This document shows positions 1,626-24,664 of a stretch of DNA of 32,000 bases, piece by piece; position 1 is the first letter of the stretch, and every line of letters starts with the position of its first letter. Source of the DNA: Planctomycetales bacterium. Lineage in GTDB: Bacteria; 4484-113; JAFGCY01. The position numbers and the translations under genes were made by a program. The stretch spans positions 1,740,001-1,772,000 of the forward strand of contig CP060262.1 in the NCBI GenBank assembly GCA_022646745.1, read 5' to 3'. The notes beneath the pieces are model-generated. The model made no database searches and had not been told where the DNA came from. It saw nothing but the letters and a program-made list of their open reading frames with translations.

Positions 1626-1750
1626 GAATTCCGGGATTTGTGATTTATCTTTGATTTAACCGGACTTAAAGAACCGATCTTGATTAATAATGGTCTAGTG
1701 TCTTGGTGGGGTCTGCCCCCGGGGCAAGGCACAAAGATCGGGAGTCAGGA

Positions 1751-3919
1751 TTGGCGCAGTTCGTGAATCTCAGTAACAGCATCCTGCTGATGACAATGCT
1801 CATGCTGGCGTTCAGCTGGGCATTGACTTCGATTCGCCGCTCCCTGCCATCCCTCCAGCGTTTCACCGGCATGCTGATGTTCACCGGGATCGCCCTGATC
1901 GCCAGCTTCGTGATCATTCCGCTGCAGGAAGGCGTGATCCTCAACCGCGGCGCTGAGCGCCTGCACTGGGTGGACCCGAGTGCAGCCACCATCGTGATCG
2001 CGCTGGCAATCGTGCTGGCCGGAGTGCTCGACGGACTGGTGACAGCCGTCGCCGTTGCCGTGCTGGCCTACTTCCTTAACGGTTCACTGAGCACGGTTAT
2101 GCTGCTGCCGGTGCTGTACAGCGTGGCGGCCGGGCTGGTGGTGCGCCATTTCTGGGGCCTGCACCGCGACTTCATCTCCAGCCGTGTACTGCTGCTGCTG
2201 GGCCTGGCGCTCAGCCTGCCGCAGGCCGTGCTGTTCTACTCGCACTTCCACAGTGCGCCGAACTTTGAACCCAAGGCCATGCTGGCCAGCATGGCGGTGA
2301 TCATCATCGCCTATCCGACCGCGGCACTCGTGATCGGCAACCTCGTCAGCCAGCCCTACCACCAGATCCTGCTCGAGAACCAGCTGCTGGATACCCAGGA
2401 ACGCAACCGCCAGATGGTCAAGCTGGCGGGCAATGCGATCGTGAACTTCAATGCGGACCTCGAAGTGATCGACTACAACGAGGAGGCTGAGCGGATCTTC
2501 GGCTACCCGCGGCAGTACCTGATCGGGCGCAAGTACCTGAGCCTGCTGTTCCCGAGCTACATCTGGGCGGGGATCGAGACGGACGCCCAGCGCGTGATGG
2601 ACGGCGGGCAGATCCGCGAGCATGAGGTGCAGGTGGTCAGCCGGGACGGCAAGGAAACCCCGATGATCTGGAGCTTCTCGCGCATCACCAATGCACGGGA
2701 TGAACCGCTTGGCATGATGGCCATCGGGCAGGACATCTCGCAGCGTAAGCGCAACGAACTGAAGCTGGCCGAGAACGAGGAGCGCGTGCGCCTGGCACTG
2801 AGCGGCGCGGACCTCGCGATGTGGGACTGGAACCTCGCAACCGAGGAGTTCGTCACCAATGATCGCTGGGCGGATATGCTTGGCTACGTCCCGGACGTGC
2901 AGGACACAGATGTCGCTTCCTGGGACGAGCGGATCCATCCGGAGGACCGCGACCACGTACTGGCCTGCATGGAACAGCACCTGTCGGGAGATACTGACAG
3001 CTTTGAGGTGGAGTATCGCATGCGCAGGCGTAATGGGGACTACCTGTGGGTGCTGTCCCGCGCACGTGTGATCCAGCGCAACGAGGAGGGCCAGCCGCTG
3101 CGCATGACGGGCACGCTGCTGGACATCTCGCAGCGCGTTGCCAGCGAGCAGGAACGCCGCCGGCTGGAGCGCCAGCTGCGCTACTCGCAGAAGATGGAGA
3201 CCATTGGCACACTGGCCGGTGGCATCGCACATGACTTCAACAACATCCTGCAGGCAATCATGGGCTACACCACTCTCGGCTCGACCCGCCTGCCTGATGA
3301 CCACCCGGTCCAGCATGACCTCGAGCGCGTGCTCAGTGCCAGCGACCGGGCCCGCAGCCTGGTGGACCAGATGCTTGTGTTCAGCCGCCAGGCCCAGCAG
3401 AGCCGCGCGCTGGTGGACGTTGAGCAGCTCTGCCGTGAGGTACTGCGCATCCTCGGCCCCCAGCTGGACCCGCGCGAGGACATCGAGGTGGTGCTTGATA
3501 TCGCACCGGACAGCCCGCAGATCCTGGCTGACCCTACCCAGATCCACCAGGTGGTGATGAACCTTGTGATCAACGCCCTGCATGCGATGAAGGACGGTGG
3601 CGGCAGGCTCGGGATCTCACTCAGGCGCCTGGACAGCGCTGCCGTTGACCTGGAGCAGACCGGGCTAGCGGAACCGCCGGCGGCCTGGCTGGAGCTCGTC
3701 GTCAGCGACACGGGTTGTGGCATCGACCCGAAGCACCTCAGCCGCCTGTTCGAGCCGTTCTTCACCACAAAAAGCGTGGAAGAGGGCACCGGGCTTGGCC
3801 TGTCGGTGGTGCATGGCATCGTCACCAACCATGGCGGTGCGATCAACGTGGACAGCGAACCGGGCCAGGGCAGCCGCTTCATCGCAGTGATGCCGGTGCA
3901 TGGCGACCTTGCCAGCTGA
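1751..3919 (+). CDS. Membrane-bound PAS/PAS sensor histidine kinase (no receiver)
   Basis: N-terminal polytopic hydrophobic region and two PAS-like blocks. H-box GIAHDFNNILQAIMGY, N-box VVMNLVINALHAM, G1 DTGCGID, G2 GTGLGLSVV. The start is uncertain: TTG 1751 has GGGAG 6 nt upstream; alternatives are TTG 1703 (ORF-track start) and ATG 1790. Confidence 0.85.
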   Translation: MAQFVNLSNSILLMTMLMLAFSWALTSIRRSLPSLQRFTGMLMFTGIALIASFVIIPLQEGVILNRGAERLHWVDPSAATIVIALAIVLAGVLDGLVTAVAVAVLAYFLNGSLSTVMLLPVLYSVAAGLVVRHFWGLHRDFISSRVLLLLGLALSLPQAVLFYSHFHSAPNFEPKAMLASMAVIIIAYPTAALVIGNLVSQPYHQILLENQLLDTQERNRQMVKLAGNAIVNFNADLEVIDYNEEAERIFGYPRQYLIGRKYLSLLFPSYIWAGIETDAQRVMDGGQIREHEVQVVSRDGKETPMIWSFSRITNARDEPLGMMAIGQDISQRKRNELKLAENEERVRLALSGADLAMWDWNLATEEFVTNDRWADMLGYVPDVQDTDVASWDERIHPEDRDHVLACMEQHLSGDTDSFEVEYRMRRRNGDYLWVLSRARVIQRNEEGQPLRMTGTLLDISQRVASEQERRRLERQLRYSQKMETIGTLAGGIAHDFNNILQAIMGYTTLGSTRLPDDHPVQHDLERVLSASDRARSLVDQMLVFSRQAQQSRALVDVEQLCREVLRILGPQLDPREDIEVVLDIAPDSPQILADPTQIHQVVMNLVINALHAMKDGGGRLGISLRRLDSAAVDLEQTGLAEPPAAWLELVVSDTGCGIDPKHLSRLFEPFFTTKSVEEGTGLGLSVVHGIVTNHGGAINVDSEPGQGSRFIAVMPVHGDLAS

Positions 3920-4030
3920 GCCGTTCACAACTGGTTAAGCCCCGGTTATCAATTCACAGACAATTCCCAGACCGGCCGTCCTGCGGTATCTATTAAGCAT
4001 AGGAATTCCCGGCGGGAACCGATACTGACC

Positions 4031-6202
4031 ATGCAGCTCAACAGGCCGGATCTGGAGATTGTTGCCATCACTGGCGGGCAGCCCGGTGCGCACGTCCCGC
4101 TGCAGGCCAACCTGATGTCCCCGGCACTGTTCATCGGCCTCTGTGGCCTGGCCGGCTGCCTCTACCTCGCACTGCTGCTCTCCCGCTCCCGCCGCCAGCT
4201 CGAGGCGATCCGGGGCCGGCTGCAGGAATCACATGACAACGAAGCGGAGTTGAGCGGCCGGCTGCACGTGCTGGAGCACAGCGCCCCGGACGCCGTGCTG
4301 ACGATCTCGCCGGAGGGCTTTATCGACGGCTTCAACCGGGCAGCCGAGCGACTGTTCGGCTACTCGGCGGCTGAGATTGTCAACCACCACTTCCGCGAGC
4401 TGTTCCCCGAGCCGGAGGACGGAGAGTGCCACCTCAACAGCGTGGTCCACGGCAATGGCAACGACCTCCTCGGCAGTGTGCGTGAGGTCAGCGCGCAGCG
4501 GCGGGATGGCAGCCTGTTCACTGCGGAATGCAGCGCGGCGGAACTGACCCGCAGCGGACAGCGCGGTGTGCTGGCGATCGTGCGCGACGTCAGTGCGCAG
4601 CGAATGCATGAGCGCCTGCTGGAGCAGAGCGAGCTGCGCCTGCGTGAGGCCCAGCAGCTGGCGCGGCTTGGCAACCTGGAGCTGGACCTGCAGGACGGCC
4701 GGATGTTCTGGTCTGATGAGCTGTTCCACCAGTTCGGCCTTGAGGCCGGGCAGGTCGAGCCGGACATGCGCCTGCTGATCTCGCTCGTGCACCCGGAGGA
4801 CCGCGACGGGATCGAGATGGCGATGGACAGCCTGATCCGCCAGGGCAGCTGCCATGAACAGAGCTACCGCCTGCTGCCTGGCAGCGGCCTGCAGCGCTGG
4901 CACCATGCGCGCTTCATCGTGGACCGCAATGAAAGCGGCCAGGCGCTGCGCCTGCTGGCAACCGTGCAGGACGTGACCGAGCAGCACAGCCTGGCGGAGA
5001 CACGCCGCCGGATGGAGGAGAAGCTGGACCAGATCCGCAAGCTGGAGACCATCGGCAGCGTCTCATCCGCGATCGCCCACGACTTCAACAACATCCTGAC
5101 GCCGATCATCGGCTTCACCGACCTCGGGCTGGAGGAGACTGAAAGCTCCAGCAGCGTGCACCGGCACCTGCAGCAGGTGCGCCGCGGGGCCAGCCGGGCC
5201 CGCGAGCTGGTGCAGCGCATCCTCTCATTCAGTGACTCACCACAGCAGGAGCCCAATCCGGTGGCATTGCGCAGCGTGGCCGAGGAGGTGCTCGGGCTGC
5301 TCAGTGTGCGGGCCGGCCGGCGCGTGCGCCTCGAGCTGCATGAATCCGGCGGGCCGCATTACGTGATGGCGGATGCCACCCACCTGCACCAGGTGCTGCT
5401 GAACCTCTGCACGAATGCGCTGCAGGCGATCGGCACCGGTGAAGGCCGCATCAGCGTGGCGCTGGAGACGGTGAACATTGACCTCGGTTCGCTGGAGCGC
5501 CTGCCAGCGCTGAAGCTCGGGCCGCATGTGCTCCTCAGCGTGCGGGATGACGGCAGCGGGATCAGCCGCCAGGACATGGAGCTGATCTTCCAGCCCTTCT
5601 TCTCCAGCCGGCCCGGCGAGGGCGGCAGCGGGATCGGGCTGTCGGTGGTGCACGGCATCGTGCTCAGCCACGGTGGAGAGATCGAGGTGGAGAGCCGCCC
5701 CGGCAGCGGCAGCTGCTTCAGGGTCTACCTGCCGCTGTGCCGCGAGCTGCCATCGCGCAGTGGTACGACTGGTGCTGAACTGGAGCAGGATGAACTTGAA
5801 CTGCGGGGGACTGGCGAAAGCATCCTGTTCGTGGATGACGAACCGGACATCAACCGGCTTGTGGTGCAGCAGCTGGAACGGCTGGGCTACCGGGTCAGCA
5901 CTTGCAGGCAGCCGGCACAGGCCCTGGACCTGCTGCGGGAGCAGCCCGGAAGCTTCCAGCTGCTGGTGACGGACCTGACCATGCCGCGCATGGACGGAGA
6001 GAAGCTGGTGCGCAGCCTGCGGGCATCCGGGGAGATGCTGCCGGTAATCATGATCACGGGATACAGCGAAGGCCTGCCACGGGATATCATGGAGGAACTG
6101 CGGATCGAGACGGTGGTTAACAAGCCGCTGGAGCAGAACTCACTGGCAAGCGCCATCAGGCGGGTGCTGGGTCCGGTTTCCGCAGTGCCAGCCAATGACT
6201 AG
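4031..6202 (+). CDS. Hybrid sensor histidine kinase (TM, two PAS, HisKA, HATPase_c, C-terminal receiver)
   Basis: H-box AIAHDFNNILTPIIGF, N-box VLLNLCTNALQAI, DDGSGIS, GSGIGLSVV. Receiver has ILFVDDEPD and LLVTDLTMPRMDG. The start could alternatively be ATG 4115. Confidence 0.88.
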   Translation: MQLNRPDLEIVAITGGQPGAHVPLQANLMSPALFIGLCGLAGCLYLALLLSRSRRQLEAIRGRLQESHDNEAELSGRLHVLEHSAPDAVLTISPEGFIDGFNRAAERLFGYSAAEIVNHHFRELFPEPEDGECHLNSVVHGNGNDLLGSVREVSAQRRDGSLFTAECSAAELTRSGQRGVLAIVRDVSAQRMHERLLEQSELRLREAQQLARLGNLELDLQDGRMFWSDELFHQFGLEAGQVEPDMRLLISLVHPEDRDGIEMAMDSLIRQGSCHEQSYRLLPGSGLQRWHHARFIVDRNESGQALRLLATVQDVTEQHSLAETRRRMEEKLDQIRKLETIGSVSSAIAHDFNNILTPIIGFTDLGLEETESSSSVHRHLQQVRRGASRARELVQRILSFSDSPQQEPNPVALRSVAEEVLGLLSVRAGRRVRLELHESGGPHYVMADATHLHQVLLNLCTNALQAIGTGEGRISVALETVNIDLGSLERLPALKLGPHVLLSVRDDGSGISRQDMELIFQPFFSSRPGEGGSGIGLSVVHGIVLSHGGEIEVESRPGSGSCFRVYLPLCRELPSRSGTTGAELEQDELELRGTGESILFVDDEPDINRLVVQQLERLGYRVSTCRQPAQALDLLREQPGSFQLLVTDLTMPRMDGEKLVRSLRASGEMLPVIMITGYSEGLPRDIMEELRIETVVNKPLEQNSLASAIRRVLGPVSAVPAND

Positions 6203-17626: not shown

Positions 17627-19177
17627 ATGACAGGAAAGGAGCTGGCCTCCTATTACCGGGCTGCGGTAGAGTACATCGACCCGCGGCTGCGGGATGACTG
17701 TCCCGTCGAGGACATCTGTGCCGCCGCCAAGGCGCGCCAGCATGCGCTGCGCGCACATGACAGCGACACCGCCCGCCTGGAGCTCGAGAAGATTGAGGAG
17801 GCCCTGCAGTTCATCCAGCGTGTGCACCCGGATGTGGTCGATATCTGCCGGGAGCAGGTGACTGCGGAATATGCCGCAGAAGTTGAACCAGCGTTGGATC
17901 TTGCGCATATTGCCCAGTCTGAACCGGAAGTGCAGGATGCCAGCCAGCTGGTCGCGGATTTCCATGCGGAGGAAGCAATACAGCCTGCCGTGGAAACCGA
18001 CGAGGCCTCCCTAGTTGACAACTCCGTTGCCGCGCCGGCTGAACGCGATGACTACGCCGGTGTGCTGCTGAGCGGCACGACTGCGGATCCCGCGGAAGAC
18101 GAAATGGTCGAGCTCGTGCTCGGTTCCGGCAGCCATTTCGAGGCGGCAGTGGAATCCGCAACTGAACTGGAGACAGCAACGGCGGATGAACCGGAACCGG
18201 AAGCCATCAGTATTGATTTCGCCGCTGAGCCGCAGGTCATCCAGCCGGAATCCGTGCTGGAAATTGACGACGCGATTGCTTCCAGTATTGACAACGAAGC
18301 TGAAGCAGAATCAGGCGATGCCGGCAGCGAGCTGGCCGCCGCCATGGCTGCCTCGCGTGAGCATGTGGAAGTGCCGAGCCGCCACCAGTTCATCGCTGAA
18401 CTGCGAGAGCGCCGCCTCAGCAGCCAGCATGAACTGGCCGCAGAGGAAGCCGAGCAGGTCATTTCCGAACTGCGTGAGGAGCAGCACAGCGAGGAGCGCG
18501 TCAGCGAGCTGATCAGCCGCGTGCCTGATGTCAGTGAACGCATGGAACAGGAGCTGCAGCAGGAAGAGCAGACCAGCCGCCCGCTGGACTTCCGCAGCCT
18601 GATGTCACGCGCCGGTGCCAACCCGTCGCTGAAGGTCCGCCCAGCCAGCCGTCCGCGCCTGAAGACCGAGGAAATCCTCGGGCGGGAGAGGCCGGCGCGC
18701 CGGATCCCGGAGGAACACGCTGCTCCGATCCTGCTTGGGATGCTCATGATCCTGTGGCAATTCAGTGCTGCGCTGCTGGCCGGATTTGCGCTCAGCCGTG
18801 CACTGGTCTGGCATTTCGGCACAGCCTTCTCATCCATGACCCCAATCAAGGCATTATTCACCTGCCTGGTAGGCCTCGGTACGGCCGCCCTGATCGGCGC
18901 CGGATTCCGCTATTACCGCCTGCGCAGCCACCGGCTGTCCCTGCCGGTGCACGTCAGTGCGCTGTCCATCGTGATGCTGCTGCTGTCCTGGCAGTTCAGC
19001 GCGAATGCCAACGCCTATGCCAGCGGCCCGCCGTTATGGCTGTGGTGCATGCTGTTCGCCGCCTGGCTGGTTGCCACAATCGCCGCCGGACTGCACGACC
19101 TGCGTGTGCCGCCTGTCTCTCGTGATCCGGAATCGGAAGTGGTAGCTGCCAAGCCTGCGGTACCGCTTGCCAACTGA
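17627..19177 (+). CDS. Hypothetical protein: long acidic low-complexity N-terminal region plus about 4 C-terminal TM helices
   Basis: GAGGG lies 8 nt upstream. E/D/A-rich for ~370 aa, then hydrophobic segments (ILLGMLMILWQFSAALLAGFAL, LFTCLVGLGTAALIGAGF, ALSIVMLLLSWQF, LWLWCMLFAAWLVATIAAGL). Confidence 0.7.
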   Translation: MTGKELASYYRAAVEYIDPRLRDDCPVEDICAAAKARQHALRAHDSDTARLELEKIEEALQFIQRVHPDVVDICREQVTAEYAAEVEPALDLAHIAQSEPEVQDASQLVADFHAEEAIQPAVETDEASLVDNSVAAPAERDDYAGVLLSGTTADPAEDEMVELVLGSGSHFEAAVESATELETATADEPEPEAISIDFAAEPQVIQPESVLEIDDAIASSIDNEAEAESGDAGSELAAAMAASREHVEVPSRHQFIAELRERRLSSQHELAAEEAEQVISELREEQHSEERVSELISRVPDVSERMEQELQQEEQTSRPLDFRSLMSRAGANPSLKVRPASRPRLKTEEILGRERPARRIPEEHAAPILLGMLMILWQFSAALLAGFALSRALVWHFGTAFSSMTPIKALFTCLVGLGTAALIGAGFRYYRLRSHRLSLPVHVSALSIVMLLLSWQFSANANAYASGPPLWLWCMLFAAWLVATIAAGLHDLRVPPVSRDPESEVVAAKPAVPLAN

Positions 19178-19404
19178 GATTTCCACCGATTCAACTGAGA
19201 TATTCCGAAAATTCTCGAAATTTCTTTAGCCCTGTCCAGCACAGGGCTCAACGCATTCCGGTGCGGTGATTTTGCAGGATTTCGTTGCCATTTGGGGAAC
19301 AAAGCAGCCAGGCTGCTCGTCTATCTGCCCGTGATGGGGTTCCTCCCCAGTCACGGAAAACAGAGTCGGATTGCCAAGTTATGCAACCGTATAGGAGGCA
19401 ATGG

Positions 19405-19542
19405 ATGACGGAGAAGGATGATAAGCCGCGAGAACCGCGCATGCTGCCAGGGAGCACTGGCAGCGACCGTGATCCGGGATGCGTCCCGTTGACACGGTAC
19501 CCGGGCTGTACCAGCCAGGCCACACGCACCGACGGCCTGTAG
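19405..19542 (+). CDS. Possible 45-aa hydrophilic micro-protein
   Basis: AGGAGG, then 6 nt, then ATG. Sequence MTEKDDKPREPRMLPGSTGSDRDPGCVPLTRYPGCTSQATRTDGL. GC3 is moderately high. It could equally be part of a structured leader. Confidence 0.3.
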   Translation: MTEKDDKPREPRMLPGSTGSDRDPGCVPLTRYPGCTSQATRTDGL

Positions 19543-19674
19543 CGACCACGGACTGCAGCCCTGACCTGATTCACTGAACCACGGCCGTGCGTGCACGGCA
19601 AGCCACGGGCTCAGTGCATCCCATACCAAGCTTTGCAGCGGCGCTGCCGACTGTGGCCGCCGCGAGGAGGAAAC

Positions 19675-19758
19675 ATGCTGGTCATGCTCGCATTGATACT
19701 GACAACGCTCTGGGTCCTGGCAATGCTGCCTGGGACCGTGCCACAGACACGCTTCTGA
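19675..19758 (+). CDS. Possible 27-aa hydrophobic micro-protein
   Basis: GAGGAGGAAAC then ATG, the same SD context as the next gene. Sequence MLVMLALILTTLWVLAMLPGTVPQTRF, one predicted TM. Not in the ORF track because it is under 60 aa. Confidence 0.4.
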   Translation: MLVMLALILTTLWVLAMLPGTVPQTRF

Positions 19759-19847
19759 TCCGGGACCACCGGGCAGGCACAGGAATCTCATTCATCCGGT
19801 GGCTGGATCACCGGAACAGGGACCGGTTTGGTCCACGGGAGGAAACA

Positions 19848-20264
19848 ATGTACTACCTTGACAACAACAACAATGACAACATCAACAGCTGGCAGAACCA
19901 TGGCCTCGACAATGAGGACCGTGACGGCGCGCAGTTCGGAGAGGACGTGCGCTACAGCATTGACAACGGGCAGGAGAGCCTGGAGTCAGCCTGGAAGTCA
20001 CGGATGGCCGAGATCGACGGCTACATCACCCAGTTCATGCATGAGGCCGATGAGCTCTCCGAGGAGATGATCGATGACCTCAGCCACAACTTCAGCGAGT
20101 GGTGGGAGAAGCAGCCGATGTCCGACAAGGTCCGTGCCGAGTGGCAGAAGGCCAGGGCAGACGGCAAGGTGGTGCGGGCCCGCATGGAGCAGCGCCTGAC
20201 GCACCTGGTTGAGGATGGCAAGCTCAAGTGGAAGGAATGGACCCGCCGCAACGGCGCCGGATAG
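19848..20264 (+). CDS. Hypothetical Trp-rich helical protein, paralog A
   Basis: GGGAGGAAACA then ATG. Asn/Asp-rich N-terminus. The core aligns with the 20911 and 21279 products (E.AW...EID..I..FM....W....EW...RAR.EQR..HLV.DG.L). The ORF-track extension to 19587 is rejected. Confidence 0.75.
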   Translation: MYYLDNNNNDNINSWQNHGLDNEDRDGAQFGEDVRYSIDNGQESLESAWKSRMAEIDGYITQFMHEADELSEEMIDDLSHNFSEWWEKQPMSDKVRAEWQKARADGKVVRARMEQRLTHLVEDGKLKWKEWTRRNGAG

Positions 20265-20334
20265 GCGACCCCGCGCAGCATCCACTGACAAGCACTGACT
20301 GGGCGGCCGCCGTGCGACCGCCGGGAGAAATCCA

Positions 20335-20487
20335 ATGCTTTACACCATCGCCGTAATCCTGATCATCCTCTGGCTGCTGGGACTCGTCGGGTTCCCGACC
20401 ATCGGAGGCTTCATCCACATCCTGCTGGTGATCGCAATCATCATGATCCTCGTGAACATCATCAGTGGACGCCGCGCGATCCTCTAG
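20335..20487 (+). CDS. lmo0937/DUF5670-like small membrane protein, copy 1 (50 aa)
   Basis: MLYTIAVILIILWLLGLVGFPTIGGFIHILLVIAIIMILVNIISGRRAIL has the two-helix hairpin and GRR tail typical of the lmo0937 family. Absent from the ORF track. Confidence 0.8.
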   Translation: MLYTIAVILIILWLLGLVGFPTIGGFIHILLVIAIIMILVNIISGRRAIL

Positions 20488-20642
20488 GAACACCACTGCA
20501 TTCCATCCTGTGCGGGAGGTGCCCACGGCCTGGTGGCCCCTCCCCCCAATGATGCCAACGAACTACACCATCCGGTCCCGCTGCCCTGCAGCGGGGCCGG
20601 GAATAAACCAAACCAACCTGTCCGGTTGAAGTGAGGAGAACA

Positions 20643-20792
20643 ATGCTTTACACCATCGCCGTAATCCTGATCGTCCTGTGGCTGCTCGGATTCGTGGGAT
20701 TCCACGTACTTGGCAACTTCATCCACATCCTGCTGGTGATTGCGATCATCATGATCCTCGTGAACATCATCAGCGGCCGCAGGCCACTTTAG
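20643..20792 (+). CDS. lmo0937/DUF5670-like small membrane protein, copy 2 (49 aa)
   Basis: GAGGAGAACA then ATG. MLYTIAVILIVLWLLGFVGFHVLGNFIHILLVIAIIMILVNIISGRRPL is near-identical to copy 1 at both ends. Confidence 0.8.
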   Translation: MLYTIAVILIVLWLLGFVGFHVLGNFIHILLVIAIIMILVNIISGRRPL

Positions 20793-20834
20793 GCAGTGGA
20801 ATCGGGAACTTTTCCCGGCCTCCCTTCGTCTGTA

Positions 20835-20870
20835 AACTCGCAGGGGGCCGTGGGTGGACCCCTGCGAGTT
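20835..20870 (+). terminator. Strong hairpin after the second micro-protein gene (possible terminator or attenuator)
   Basis: AACTCGCAGGGG (20835-20846), 12-nt loop, CCCCTGCGAGTT (20859-20870). It is followed by GTCAGACT, a half-site of the GNRA hairpin motif. There is no long U tract. Confidence 0.4.
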
Positions 20871-20910
20871 GTCAGACTGCCACGGCACACTGCCGGATTC
20901 GGAGGCAAGT

Positions 20911-21231
20911 ATGACCATCAGAGAACAAAGCACCAGCGCCCAGGGCTGGCAGCGCGAATGGGAAGAGCGGACGGACCACATCGACACCCTTATCATGCGC
21001 TATACACGCCGCTGCGGTGAGCTGACATCCGACCGCGTGCAGCGCCTGACCGACGAGCTCCGGCTCTGGTTTGACCAGGAAGTGCCCCACATCAACTACG
21101 ACCCCGACTGGCAGCGCACGAAGTGCGATCCGCATTGCCTGCAGCAGCTGCTTGCCGGGCGCCTCAGCCACCTGCTGGCGGACAACCGCCTGTATATCTC
21201 GGTTGTCGAGGCCCCGGTTGTTGAGGAGTAG
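20911..21231 (+). CDS. Hypothetical Trp-rich helical protein, paralog B
   Basis: GGAGGCAAGT then ATG, an upstream context paralogous to that of 21279. It aligns with paralogs A and C (W..W....ID..I...L....W....DW....RL.HLL.D.RL). Confidence 0.75.
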   Translation: MTIREQSTSAQGWQREWEERTDHIDTLIMRYTRRCGELTSDRVQRLTDELRLWFDQEVPHINYDPDWQRTKCDPHCLQQLLAGRLSHLLADNRLYISVVEAPVVEE

Positions 21232-21278
21232 GCACAGGCTCCGGTTATCCGTGCGGACACGCGGATGGGAGGCAAGCC

Positions 21279-21602
21279 ATGAATGTTGATTACCAGACTG
21301 AGACGGAGCAGTTCGGGGCCTGGGAGGCCGCCTGGAGCAAGCACTGTCCGGAGATCGACCGGCGCATCGTCCGCTTCATGGAGGACAGCCCAAGCTTCAG
21401 CCCCGAATCGCTGGCTATCCTGACCAGTGAGATCAGTGACTGGCTGGATACGCGCCAGATCAACGGGGAAGCCTGGGTGGAGTGGCGCCGGATCAGGCTT
21501 GAGCCGGACTGGCTGCGGGCTCGCGTCGAGCAGCGCATTGCGCATCTCGTGGCGGACGGCAGCCTCAGGCTCAACATCTGGCGCGAGGGCTGGCACTACT
21601 AG
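21279..21602 (+). CDS. Hypothetical Trp-rich helical protein, paralog C
   Basis: GGGAGGCAAGCC then ATG. It is closest to paralog A: EAAWSKHCPEIDRRIVRFM / ESAWKSRMAEIDGYITQFM, and RARVEQRIAHLVADGSLRL / RARMEQRLTHLVEDGKLKW. Confidence 0.8.
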   Translation: MNVDYQTETEQFGAWEAAWSKHCPEIDRRIVRFMEDSPSFSPESLAILTSEISDWLDTRQINGEAWVEWRRIRLEPDWLRARVEQRIAHLVADGSLRLNIWREGWHY

Positions 21603-21659
21603 CCCTCTGTCCGCTGGGGTCCGCAGCAGCCGGATTTGAATTCAGCGCGCATTCTGGGC

Positions 21660-21665
21660 GATAAT
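21660..21665 (+). promoter_or_regulatory. -10-like box (GATAAT) overlapping or just preceding the carboxypeptidase start
   Basis: GGGCGATAAT gtttcac GTG. The in-frame GTG 21673 lies 7 nt after the box and would give MLRLRCIYTGMLLALLQLGAAQA. Confidence 0.3.
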
Positions 21666-22476
21666 GTTTCACGTGCTGAGGTTGAGATGTATCTACACAG
21701 GTATGCTGCTGGCGCTGCTGCAGCTTGGTGCTGCGCAGGCCCAGACGCATGACCTGAATGAACTGTCCTGCAAGTCCTACCTGATCTTCGACCTGCAGAG
21801 TGAACGCATCGTGGCCCAGGGCAACCCGGACCGCAGCCAGCCGATTGCTTCCATCACGAAGCTGATGACGAGCATCCTGGCGGCCGAACGCCTGCGCTTC
21901 GATGGCCGCTACATCCTGACCGCGGAGGAACAGAAGACCTTCCACTGTGAGACGATGCGTGGGCAGAAGATGCTGGAGATGATGCTGATCCCGAGCAACA
22001 ACAAGATGTGCAGCGTGGTGGCACGCATCATCAGCGGCTCCGACGACGCCTTCGTGAAGGAAATGAATGCCAAGGCGCAGCAGCTCGGGATGTACAACAC
22101 ACGTTTCGCGACCCCGAGCGGCCTGCCGCGGGACGGGCAGTACTCCACGATGGAGGACGTGCTGCTGATGACCCGCGTGGCGCTGACCTACCCGCGAATC
22201 CGTGATGCGATGACCCGTGAAACGGTTGAACTCAACGGCGAGGTCTACTCCGGTACCCTGCGCGACCTGTATGGCCGCCATCCGGGACTGATCGGTGGCA
22301 AGACCGGCTACACCAATGCGGCCGGGCGCTGCCTGACCCTGTGGTACCGCAGCGGCGGGCGCGACTACATCGTGATCACCCTGTGCAGCAAGGGCAGCAA
22401 GTCTAGCTTCCGCGACGCCGAGATCCTGCTGAGCAACTTCGGCCTGTGGGACGGCGAGGTCGGTGCCTGGGAATGA
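21664..22476 (+). CDS. D-alanyl-D-alanine carboxypeptidase (peptidase S11, class C low-molecular-weight PBP)
   Basis: SxxK SITK, SxN SNN, KTG in GGKTGYT, and a signal peptide ending AAQA. The alternative leaderless start is GTG 21673. Confidence 0.88.
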   Translation: MFHVLRLRCIYTGMLLALLQLGAAQAQTHDLNELSCKSYLIFDLQSERIVAQGNPDRSQPIASITKLMTSILAAERLRFDGRYILTAEEQKTFHCETMRGQKMLEMMLIPSNNKMCSVVARIISGSDDAFVKEMNAKAQQLGMYNTRFATPSGLPRDGQYSTMEDVLLMTRVALTYPRIRDAMTRETVELNGEVYSGTLRDLYGRHPGLIGGKTGYTNAAGRCLTLWYRSGGRDYIVITLCSKGSKSSFRDAEILLSNFGLWDGEVGAWE

Positions 22477-23567
22477 CGCGCTGCCTGCCGCTCCTGCTGC
22501 TGGCGCTGGTGCTCTGTGCATCATGTGAACAGCTGCAGCGCGCGGCGAACAAGCCCGGCGGCGTATTCGGGCCATCCGAGAAGGTGCTGCGGGAGTACCA
22601 TGACTCGCGCTGGCAGGCCGTTGTCAATGCGGTGGCAGAGGGCAGTGATGAAGTCGTGCTGCCGGATGAACCGGAAGTGCCGAAGGCACTGGAGAAGCTG
22701 AACCTCGAGCAGGGCTACCAGGCGCTGGCTGCCAACCGCACTTCCGAAGAGCTGAGCTGGCAGGCCCTGATAGAGCAGAGTGACCTCAGCATGCGCTTCT
22801 CGGCGGAGGTGCTGGACGTGCTGGAGCGCAATGACGCGGACAGCATCAGCCAGATCGTGCCGCAGATTGACGACTATGCCTCGCAGCAGGAGACGGCGAT
22901 GTCCGACTGGCGCGCACTGCGCAGCCAGCTGCGCGGCAGCCTGGACTCCCTGCAGCAGGACTGGGACAGTGCCTGGCCGGACAACGAGTTCGACTTTGAC
23001 CTGCTGGCCCAGGTGGAGCGCATCCAGGCGGACCAGCTCGGGCGGCTCAGCCCGGAACGGATCGCTGCGCTGACACACTACCATGACAACGAATTCTCAC
23101 GGCTGGCAACGGACTACCTGGAGTATGAACCGGCGGAAGCTGAGGAGATCAGCGCCGTGGCGCATGTGCCGGCGGACTGCGAGGGCATCAGTGATGCCAC
23201 GCGCCGGCTGGAGGCCGCGCTGATCGTGCGCCATGCGCTGGACAGCGCGATCGTGCGTGACCGCGAGCTGGTGGAGAGCTACGTGCCGGGCGTGCTGGGC
23301 AAGGGCCCGATCAGCAATGTGAGCATCCCGGACACGCGCTACGGCAGCCACCGCGCGCGGCTGGCCGTTGCCAGGCTGGAGCTGTACAGCATGCTCGACG
23401 GGCTGGTGACGGATGTGCTGGACGTGATGATCTACGATGTCAACCGGGAGTGGACGCTGGCCTGGCCGGGCAATGAGCTGGAGAACAACATCTTCGCCTA
23501 TGCCGGGGTGCAGCAGACGGTGCCGCGGCTGGAGGACCCCTACGAGGCCCCGGCGTCCAAGCCCTGA
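22473..23567 (+). CDS. Hypothetical lipoprotein
   Basis: ATGA overlap with the preceding stop. MTRCLPLLLLALVLCASC contains a lipobox. Helical, acidic mature part. No family recognised. Confidence 0.75.
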   Translation: MTRCLPLLLLALVLCASCEQLQRAANKPGGVFGPSEKVLREYHDSRWQAVVNAVAEGSDEVVLPDEPEVPKALEKLNLEQGYQALAANRTSEELSWQALIEQSDLSMRFSAEVLDVLERNDADSISQIVPQIDDYASQQETAMSDWRALRSQLRGSLDSLQQDWDSAWPDNEFDFDLLAQVERIQADQLGRLSPERIAALTHYHDNEFSRLATDYLEYEPAEAEEISAVAHVPADCEGISDATRRLEAALIVRHALDSAIVRDRELVESYVPGVLGKGPISNVSIPDTRYGSHRARLAVARLELYSMLDGLVTDVLDVMIYDVNREWTLAWPGNELENNIFAYAGVQQTVPRLEDPYEAPASKP

Positions 23568-23656
23568 GCTGACAGTCGGTCCAATCCCGCTTAAGCCCCG
23601 GTGAACTCCCTGACAACCCACTTGGCCCCGGTGTTTCCATGCCTTAGGCTCTAGCC

Positions 23657-23848
23657 GTGGAAGACAAAGCAACAGTTGAGCAGCTGCAGCAGCGCGTCGA
23701 GCAGCTGGAGGCGCAGGTGGCGGGCCTGCTGGAATCAAACCGCAATATCGTGGATGCCCTGCGCCAGATCGAGAGCTGGATCGTGAATGCCAGCAAGGTG
23801 CTGACAGCGCAGATCCAGCAGCAGGGTTCAGGCGAGCAGGGACAGTAG
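23657..23848 (+). CDS. Possible small coiled-coil protein (63 aa)
   Basis: GTG start. Heptad-like VEQLQQRVEQLEAQVAGLLESNRNIVDALRQIESWI. GC3-rich. The 3' end overlaps the convergent HAD gene by 21 nt. No clear SD. Confidence 0.45.
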   Translation: MEDKATVEQLQQRVEQLEAQVAGLLESNRNIVDALRQIESWIVNASKVLTAQIQQQGSGEQGQ

Positions 23849-24664
23849 GTAGCGGCCCAGTTCCGCTTCGCCGTTGTCAGGCAGCACATGGCTTGCCAAC
23901 GCCAGCGCCTGCGGATGGGAATGGCCCATTGCCACCGCCCTGCCGGCTGCTGCCAGCATCGGCAGGTCGTTGGCATCGTCGCCGACGGCCATGGTCTCAC
24001 TTATGTCCAGCCCGAGCAGCTGCGCGAATCTCCCCAGCGCCCAGCCCTTGTTGCCATCGGGATGGAACACCTCCAGTGCGTGGCAGGGCATGCGCGGCCA
24101 GAGCACGCATTCGGCGAACACATCGTCGCCAAGCCCGGTTTCAAGGGTGCGCTTGCCTTCGAGCACGAGCTCCTCAGTGCCGGGCATGCTCAGCTGCAGC
24201 ACCTGGCGCTCGGGCAGCTCTTCGAGTGATGCAATCGTGCCGCCGCGTGCGCCATACTCCGAGAAGTAACGTGTCTGCAGCACGGACTCGGCGCGCTTAA
24301 GCCAGGCGAAGTCCATCGGGTCCTCGTCATCCCATTCGAAGTAGAGGTTCAGCGAATGCGGCTCCAGCAGGGAGACGGCCTGCTCGACGAGGCGGTGCTC
24401 CAGCGGCTTGCTGGCCAGCCGGGTCCAGTCAGGCAGCTGCCAGAGCTGGGTGCCGGAGTTGCTGCTGGCGAGGATCGGCAGGCCGATCTGGTCCATGTAG
24501 GGTTCGAGGGTGGTGCGCCGCCGGCCGGTGATCACCGCCAGCGCCACGCCGGCTTCATGCAGCTCACGCAGGGCCCGCAGGTTGATCTCCGGGATGCGGT
24601 GGTCATCGACGGGCAGCAGCGTGCGGTCGAGGTCCAGGGCGATCAGCTTTGGCAGGGTGGGCAC
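23828..24664 (-). CDS. Cof-type HAD-IIB family phosphatase
   Basis: Motif I LIALDLDRTLL, motif IV GDDANDLPML, and a cap domain between them. GTG start. Confidence 0.88.
   Translation of the reverse strand: MPTLPKLIALDLDRTLLPVDDHRIPEINLRALRELHEAGVALAVITGRRRTTLEPYMDQIGLPILASSNSGTQLWQLPDWTRLASKPLEHRLVEQAVSLLEPHSLNLYFEWDDEDPMDFAWLKRAESVLQTRYFSEYGARGGTIASLEELPERQVLQLSMPGTEELVLEGKRTLETGLGDDVFAECVLWPRMPCHALEVFHPDGNKGWALGRFAQLLGLDISETMAVGDDANDLPMLAAAGRAVAMGHSHPQALALASHVLPDNGEAELGRYLLSLLA

Follow-up and report, generated by a model that had tools for sequence, protein, structure and literature searches.

The DUF5670/lmo0937 proteins are among the commonest annotated bacterial microproteins (sORFdb preprint). 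In Listeria, lmo0937 is strongly sigma-B dependent (54-fold; PMC2813243), is down in a sigB mutant (PMC7690807) and is bound by the small RNA Rli51 (PMC11394854). Here we describe a gene array in a 32,000-nucleotide stretch of contig CP060262.1 (referred to as the window) from a member of GTDB phylum 4484-113, in which two DUF5670 genes, m1 and m2, are interleaved with three paralogous genes, A, B and C, encoding small proteins of a predicted all-helical family. A review lists 12 genomes for the phylum ('Ca. Niteriota'), ranging in size from 1.54 to 4.11 Mb and obtained from activated sludge and bioreactors (PMC11382960). What is new here is the partner family, set within an otherwise known DUF5670-centred small-protein cluster, and a soluble family genetically linked to DUF5670 offers a possible route to the function of the microprotein.

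The array runs A-m1-m2-B-C on the plus strand over positions 19848-21602 of the window, as a first-pass annotation made from the sequence alone had described it, with a Shine-Dalgarno (SD) sequence ahead of each of the five open reading frames (ORFs). Also found were the two SD contexts that had been quoted as paralogous between the helical genes. A (19848..20264) encodes a protein of 138 aa and is the helical gene directly upstream of a DUF5670 gene in the window, followed by m1 (20335..20487, 50 aa), m2 (20643..20792, 49 aa), B (20911..21231, 106 aa) and C (21279..21602, 107 aa). Comparison with orthologues gave ratios of non-synonymous to synonymous differences (pN/pS) of 0.12-0.59 for these genes and for u27, a short ORF upstream of A that is taken up below, indicating that all six are coding genes and not chance ORFs. 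They are under purifying selection.

Both microproteins belong to the lmo0937/DUF5670 family, as had been proposed, and score far above the curated cut-offs of its hidden Markov models (HMMs). Against PF18919 (DUF5670, cut-off 23.5), m1 reached 55.7 bits (E 5.1e-15) and m2 56.9 bits (E 2.1e-15), covering profile positions 1-43 of 43, and against NF033488 (lmo0937_fam_TM, cut-off 30) the corresponding scores were 62.9 bits (E 2e-17) and 65.0 bits (E 4.4e-18). DNA repeats D1 and D2 mark m2 as a tandem duplicate of m1, and the description of the two as almost identical holds in so far as they are close duplicates, but slightly overstates an identity of 84%. Each protein consists of two hydrophobic helices with a short loop and a GRRxxL tail, with an isoelectric point (pI) of 10.8 and a grand average of hydropathy of 2.18 for m1 and 2.02 for m2, and is predicted to form a helical hairpin in the cytoplasmic membrane, with only the N-terminus and the basic GRRxxL tail facing the cytoplasm. 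The length and basic tail are the same in 82 DUF5670 relatives, and pN/pS for m1 was 0.16-0.34. Like DUF5670 proteins elsewhere, m1 and m2 are full-length, carry the LWLLG, IHxLLV and GRR motifs and are 60-83% identical to copies from many bacteria. Unlike those proteins, which are usually encoded singly, they are tandemly duplicated and interleaved with the new helical family, and their predicted periplasmic loop reads GF..IG as against the common S/T-S-Y-T. A tblastn search of plasmids with m1 returned no match, the low-complexity filter being the probable reason.

Pairwise BLASTP confirmed that A, B and C are paralogous, with 35% identity between A and C (E 4e-18), 24% between B and C (E 3e-11) and 23% between A and B (E 3e-10), B being the most divergent of the three. 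The colinear motif that had been read as common to all of them is a good fit in A and C, but fits B only partly. The three proteins are acidic (pI ~5), and tryptophan makes up 5.1% of A, 3.8% of B and 7.5% of C. AlphaFold2 (AF2) models of A and C both predict a compact five-helix domain. In A, a disordered Asn/Asp-rich N-terminus (residues 1-41) precedes a helical core (45-122), with a predicted local distance difference test score (pLDDT) of 80-92 over residues 45-125, while in C the helices span residues 13-93 with a mean pLDDT of 79.3 and a predicted template modelling score of 0.68.

The first-pass annotation could not place A, B and C in any family, and HMM and structure searches (Pfam, NCBIfam, PADLOC, PHROGs, PDB and Foldseek) led to the same outcome. 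In Pfam, NCBIfam, PADLOC and PHROGs the only match at E<=0.1 was one of 12 bits for A, judged spurious, and a sequence-profile search of the PDB gave chance matches only, the best at E 0.24. Foldseek searches with the AF2 models of A and C, in which E <= 0.001 or a template modelling score (TM) >= 0.5 was taken as a match, gave best E values of 2.8 and 3.9 with TM at most 0.32 against the PDB, and a best E of 1.3 with TM at most 0.46 against the viral predicted folds of BFVD. No characterised family was matched, and with that none of the well-characterised families unrelated to membranes, whose recovery had been named beforehand as speaking against a link with the microproteins.

Three specific identities were considered and rejected. 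Homology to CsbD (PF05532) received a probability of 0.14% when a 59-sequence alignment of the helical family was compared with CsbD neighbours by hhalign, and identity with WXG100 proteins or with class II bacteriocin immunity proteins was ruled out by the lack of any Pfam or fold match. Class IIa bacteriocin immunity proteins are four-helix bundles of ~100 aa. A, B and C are like them in size, in a predicted all-helical cytoplasmic nature and in occurring as paralogous arrays, but they gave no Pfam match and no Foldseek match in the PDB, and DUF5670, unlike the bacteriocins, lacks a leader peptide and is a conserved chromosomal membrane protein.

The family is also sparsely represented. Only 15 relatives came out of a word-indexed search, 52 clusters at E<=0.001 (33 at E<=1e-10) were recovered when 1.84 billion representative proteins were searched exhaustively with HMMER, and a homologue search with a 58-sequence family alignment returned 8 proteins only. 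Most members are of ~105 aa, some carry Q/G/S/P-rich tails and one has two tandem domains. Across the family one Trp and one Arg are invariant, and one Asp and one Leu are nearly so. A YtxH-like C-terminal tail (E 1.1e-5) occurs in one of the 58 members scanned, and no profile match is common across members. The orthologues of B are P0005, P0012, P0013 and P0014. Judged from its sequences, this is a genuine, rare and previously undescribed protein family. All members whose source could be retrieved come from one candidate lineage, according to record names (UBP7 / 4484-113) and, in agreement with these, a comparison of RibD.

In a subfamily from metagenomes (P0029, P0030, P0038, P0040, P0052 and P0058), helix 2 is followed by a conserved FCxxCxGxP motif and the tails are long and Q/G/S/P-rich, neither feature being present in A, B or C of the window. 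This subfamily may be a variant sensitive to metals or to redox state. A scan of metagenomes with its CxxC pattern found no relatives.

Pairing of a helical gene with a DUF5670 gene recurs outside the window. Within the syntenic lineage, whose loci lie on records of metagenome-assembled genomes titled 'UBP7', 'Bacteria_4484_113' and once 'Planctomycetales bacterium', the order A-m-m-B-C is shared by the window and by loci L001/L011, L005/L012 and L010, while L008 carries six helical-family genes and two DUF5670 genes together with DUF5670 remnants, and L020 has genes of 149-161-50-50-113 aa. The first-pass annotation had made its proposal depend on such an association elsewhere, and the association was seen at loci with unrelated flanks. 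L015/L016 contain the simplest arrangement, a single 103-aa family gene separated by 43 bp from a single 50-aa DUF5670 gene, between RsfS and a PKD-domain protein. L009 has seven helical-family genes, of which two end 55 and 30 bp before a DUF5670 start, together with two DUF5670 genes, and in L018/L019 genes of 106-50-108-106-84-107 aa lie between TerC and HicAB/AtpC. Two JGI contigs show the orders 106-50-201 and 125-50 ... 98-50-50-171-49-109-106. At these loci, which make up at least four non-syntenic neighbourhoods, 30-95 bp separate the end of a helical-family gene from the start of a DUF5670 gene, and the ratio of helical to DUF5670 genes, 3:2 in the window, ranges from 1:1 to 7:2 across loci.

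The L015 genome is a distant relative of that of the window, its RibD sharing just 53% identity with the copy on a 4,112,261-bp contig of the window lineage. This RibD still groups with the window lineage, ahead of a sharp drop to 45% or less. On this comparison the linkage is old and confined to one broad lineage. The literature searched yielded no earlier description of the pairing, or of DUF5670 by name, in keeping with the claim that the pairing is new.

Two further small-protein families occur in the non-syntenic arrays L009 (3995-4279, 6939-7184 and 7990-8360) and L018 (6646-6972 and 7740-7994), both without a Pfam match. Members of the first are 94-108 aa long and start with MSYRV[FY]F, and the second comprises basic His/Gln/Lys-rich low-complexity proteins (MKAHGRKAKAKLHKQH...).

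The association was also approached from the side of the microprotein, using 80 metagenomic loci (L022-L101; 33-72% GC) that encode close DUF5670 relatives, 60-83% identical to m1. At none of these 80 loci of other bacteria was a relative of A, B or C present within 3 kb, and DUF5670 was a single gene at 78 of them. Set against this single occurrence, the repeated oriented adjacency in the candidate lineage would be far beyond chance, an argument from counts of loci and not a formal genome-wide test. The neighbours of DUF5670 in these bacteria were nevertheless recurrent, comprising an upstream gene for a BON-domain protein (20/80), a downstream gene for a two-helix protein of 70-90 aa (19/80) and genes for OmpA family (9), glycine-zipper 2TM (7), DUF3185 (6) and CsbD (~4-6) proteins. 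This looks like a conserved stress-type neighbourhood, of which we found no description. On the evidence of gene content, DUF5670 generally sits among envelope and general-stress small proteins, and A, B and C are a lineage-specific addition. The window array resembles general-stress clusters (CsbD, YtxH, OsmY/BON, DUF3185) in that very small soluble and membrane proteins are co-located with DUF5670, with a further likeness in the YtxH-like tail of one helical-family member, and differs from them in having no BON, CsbD or DUF3185 genes and in that A, B and C are homologous to no Pfam family. The census of neighbours points to an envelope or osmotic-stress role for the DUF5670 family as a whole.

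The reading that we favour, and which in our judgement has an even chance of being right, is that the array is a lineage-specific small-protein module for envelope or general stress, with the helical proteins and DUF5670 serving one and the same process. The core of the module would be the widespread DUF5670/lmo0937 microprotein, a 50-aa membrane hairpin, to which the candidate phylum would have added a new family of cytoplasmic proteins that are small, acidic, rich in Trp and entirely helical. An ancestral unit of one helical gene, a spacer of 30-95 bp and one DUF5670 gene, presumably co-transcribed, may have given rise to the present arrays by tandem duplication, gene conversion, recombination and decay, leading to a ratio of 3:2 here and up to 7:2 elsewhere. 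The helical proteins would then most likely be cytoplasmic partners or modulators of DUF5670, the acidic protein plausibly docking on the short basic cytoplasmic tail of the hairpin, and the process served would be adaptation of the envelope to general or osmotic stress. Physical contact between helical protein and microprotein is conjectured here, and co-transcription of the array and a stress role in this organism are likewise presumed.

Several observations weigh against a shared stress module. Its stress role is borrowed by analogy from Listeria and from neighbours in other phyla, and the DUF5670 proteins linked to the helical family look ordinary, with nothing in them to signal a special partner. 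L013, a syntenic locus, keeps only B and C and is without A, m1 and m2, and L014 has two helical-family genes and no DUF5670 gene on its 2.2 kb, from which it follows that adjacency in cis can be dispensed with. There are usually more helical than DUF5670 genes, and helical genes of the B and C type do not lie directly upstream of one, so that at best only some of the helical paralogues would be direct partners. All pairing contexts moreover come from one candidate lineage, leaving few truly independent events. Of the functional pairing between a soluble helical protein and a tiny membrane protein, as first suggested from the local duplication of both, genetic linkage is therefore upheld, but within one lineage only and as neither obligatory nor 1:1.

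A stronger version of the favoured reading would make A, B and C a dedicated binding partner of DUF5670, docking on the GRRxxL tails of an oligomeric hairpin and gating or stabilising it, with expansion of the paralogues diversifying the interaction. We regard this as a tentative proposal, with the larger share of our expectation lying elsewhere. If it were true, a molecular partner would be in view for the first time for a microprotein that ranks among the most widespread in bacteria, is annotated without a function and belongs to the sigma-B regulon in Listeria, and a new two-component microprotein system would be defined. As a rare family, the helical proteins occur in a single uncultured candidate phylum only, and the mechanism stands at the stage of a proposal.

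Signs of turnover are visible within the arrays. Upstream of A by 90 bp lies u27 (19675..19758, plus strand), a 27-aa single-helix ORF (MLVMLALILTTLWVLAMLPGTVPQTRF) with a strong SD, GAGGAGG. Its length (27-28 aa), stop codon and SD are kept in L001, L005, L010, L012 and L008, and its pN/pS against orthologues is 0.29-0.47. It resembles only the first helix of DUF5670 and gave no full-length match to the family profile; its counterpart in L008 reached E 0.0011 against a two-sequence profile, and the copy in the window was located by motif only. By sequence, u27 is a half-length DUF5670 derivative and not a member of the family. It is probably part of the array unit and could serve as a conserved leader peptide for A or represent a single-helix microprotein. 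A C-terminal DUF5670 remnant is present in L008, and in L005 the identity between m1 and m2 reaches 94%. The 27-aa u27, the L008 remnant and the high m1/m2 identity in L005 appear to be signs of duplication, gene conversion and decay.

A strain mosaic was seen when the window was compared, over 19686-24475, with the near-identical strain HKST-UBA01 (L012). The DNA is 100% identical for ~3.2 kb, from 21275, given as the first base of C, to ~24475, as against 79-94% across A-m1-m2-B and ~96% further upstream, making A-m1-m2-B the most diverged alignable coding stretch between the two strains. The alignment thus implies a recombination breakpoint exactly at the B/C border. Divergence across A-m1-m2-B is mostly synonymous (pN/pS 0.12-0.34), which points to allelic replacement by recombination, not to positive selection.

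An alternative is that the two families are merely co-located, a duplication and recombination hot spot having gathered small, dispensable, co-regulated genes that travel together by descent and by segmental duplication of mixed units. That all contexts come from one candidate lineage, that unrelated small genes also occur in the arrays, that copy numbers vary freely, that a breakpoint falls at the B/C border and that L013 and L014 lack the pairing would all be accommodated by it. However, the minimal 1+1 pair of L015/L016, with its 43-bp spacing, sits in an unrelated neighbourhood, and the oriented order of helical gene, short spacer and DUF5670 gene is kept at a RibD identity of only ~53%. 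Both are hard to explain without selection for linkage, and we consider co-location without direct coupling unlikely.

The gene order also recalls ghoST of E. coli, in which the gene for a soluble protein of ~100 aa lies directly upstream of that for a two-helix membrane peptide of ~50 aa. GhoS has a ferredoxin-like (Cas2-like) fold with RNase activity. By analogy with this type V system or with other small-membrane-toxin systems, DUF5670 would be a membrane-damaging toxin, the soluble protein encoded upstream would neutralise the peptide or its mRNA, and the arrays would reflect an arms-race-like turnover. Besides the shared architecture, this would be consistent with tandem expansion and decay (including the half-gene u27 and the C-terminal remnant of L008), with a divergence between near-identical strains that, among the alignable coding stretches, is greatest in A-m1-m2-B, and with a HicAB pair nearby in L018. 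The likeness to GhoS/GhoT ends with the gene architecture, as A, B and C show no similarity to GhoS in sequence or fold, the AF2 models of A and C being all-alpha, and m1 and m2 match only DUF5670 in Pfam. DUF5670 stands without an A, B or C relative at all 80 loci of other bacteria, where its usual neighbours are stress proteins and not antitoxins, and its 60-83% identity across genomes of 33-72% GC is a conservation unlike that of toxin-antitoxin toxins. Ratios of helical to DUF5670 genes depart from 1:1 and exceed it, a locus with B and C only exists, the divergence between strains is mostly synonymous, and neither PADLOC nor Pfam gave a toxin or antitoxin match. A toxin-antidote system is thus quite improbable.

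The spacers of the array contain the strong hairpins that had been reported between its units, which are real, although the positions first given for them (20561-20579 and 20835-20870) were slightly off and the one between m2 and B is not a mere separator. Two conserved GC-rich hairpins (~20515-20548 and 20572-20600, plus strand; inverted repeat I13) occupy the m1-m2 spacer, which has a minimum free energy of -61.4 kcal/mol (z -3.25 against shuffled sequences), and both stems are conserved in L001 and L005. The m2-B spacer (-61.7 kcal/mol, z -4.24) holds a long hairpin at 20828..20877 (plus strand) with 22-nt arms and a conserved GGGTGG loop, in which 5 of the 22 pairs show compensatory changes, thin evidence as it comes from only five closely related orthologues. 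In L013, where A, m1 and m2 are absent, this hairpin is kept upstream of B; it is therefore part of the B leader, not an m2 terminator. Sequestration of the SD of B by an anti-SD in the m2-B spacer was considered and rejected, the pairing being predicted in the window but the anti-SD not being conserved in L005 or L001. Rfam 15 gave 0 matches in the whole window at gathering thresholds and only chance-level microRNA and small nucleolar RNA matches (~20 bits) in E-value mode, and no tRNA was found. That the helical proteins should be small cytoplasmic regulators (anti-sigma, anti-adaptor or RNA-binding) of DUF5670 genes or of structured leaders, and not binders of the microprotein, would suit these conserved, significantly structured spacers, with the GGGTGG loop and compensatory pairs of the B leader, and acidic helical bundles with an invariant Trp and Arg, but is very improbable given that A, B and C resemble no regulator family or fold, that a pI of ~5 argues against nucleic-acid binding and that the covariation comes from so few and such close relatives.

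Upstream of u27, a 45-aa hydrophilic Pro/Arg-rich ORF (19405-19542, plus strand), called as a gene in L001 and L005, has an SD context, GGAGGCAATGG ATG, paralogous to those of B and C, and conserved blocks without an Rfam match extend over 19290-19545. The common order of the syntenic loci is AcrB, MFP, Ank, M42 peptidase, a protein of ~516 aa, the array, S11 peptidase, a protein of ~365 aa, HAD hydrolase and ABC transporter. The 516-aa protein of the window (17627-19177, plus strand) matches no family and combines an extended acidic, low-complexity N-terminal region with about four transmembrane helices towards the C-terminus; in the syntenic lineage, L013 included, its gene invariably comes immediately before the array, and the non-syntenic arrays lack it. 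On the 3' side (21664-23567, plus strand), the gene for an S11 D-Ala-D-Ala carboxypeptidase of 270 aa overlaps by 31 nt that for a 373-aa protein, which is acidic, has a signal- or lipoprotein-like N-terminus and matches no family, and this pair follows the array in every syntenic genome. Towards the start of the window (1703-6202, plus strand), neighbouring genes for two large histidine kinases with PAS domains, of which the second is a hybrid carrying a receiver domain, lie upstream of an isocitrate/isopropylmalate dehydrogenase-family gene, the AcrB/MFP efflux pair and the ankyrin-repeat protein.

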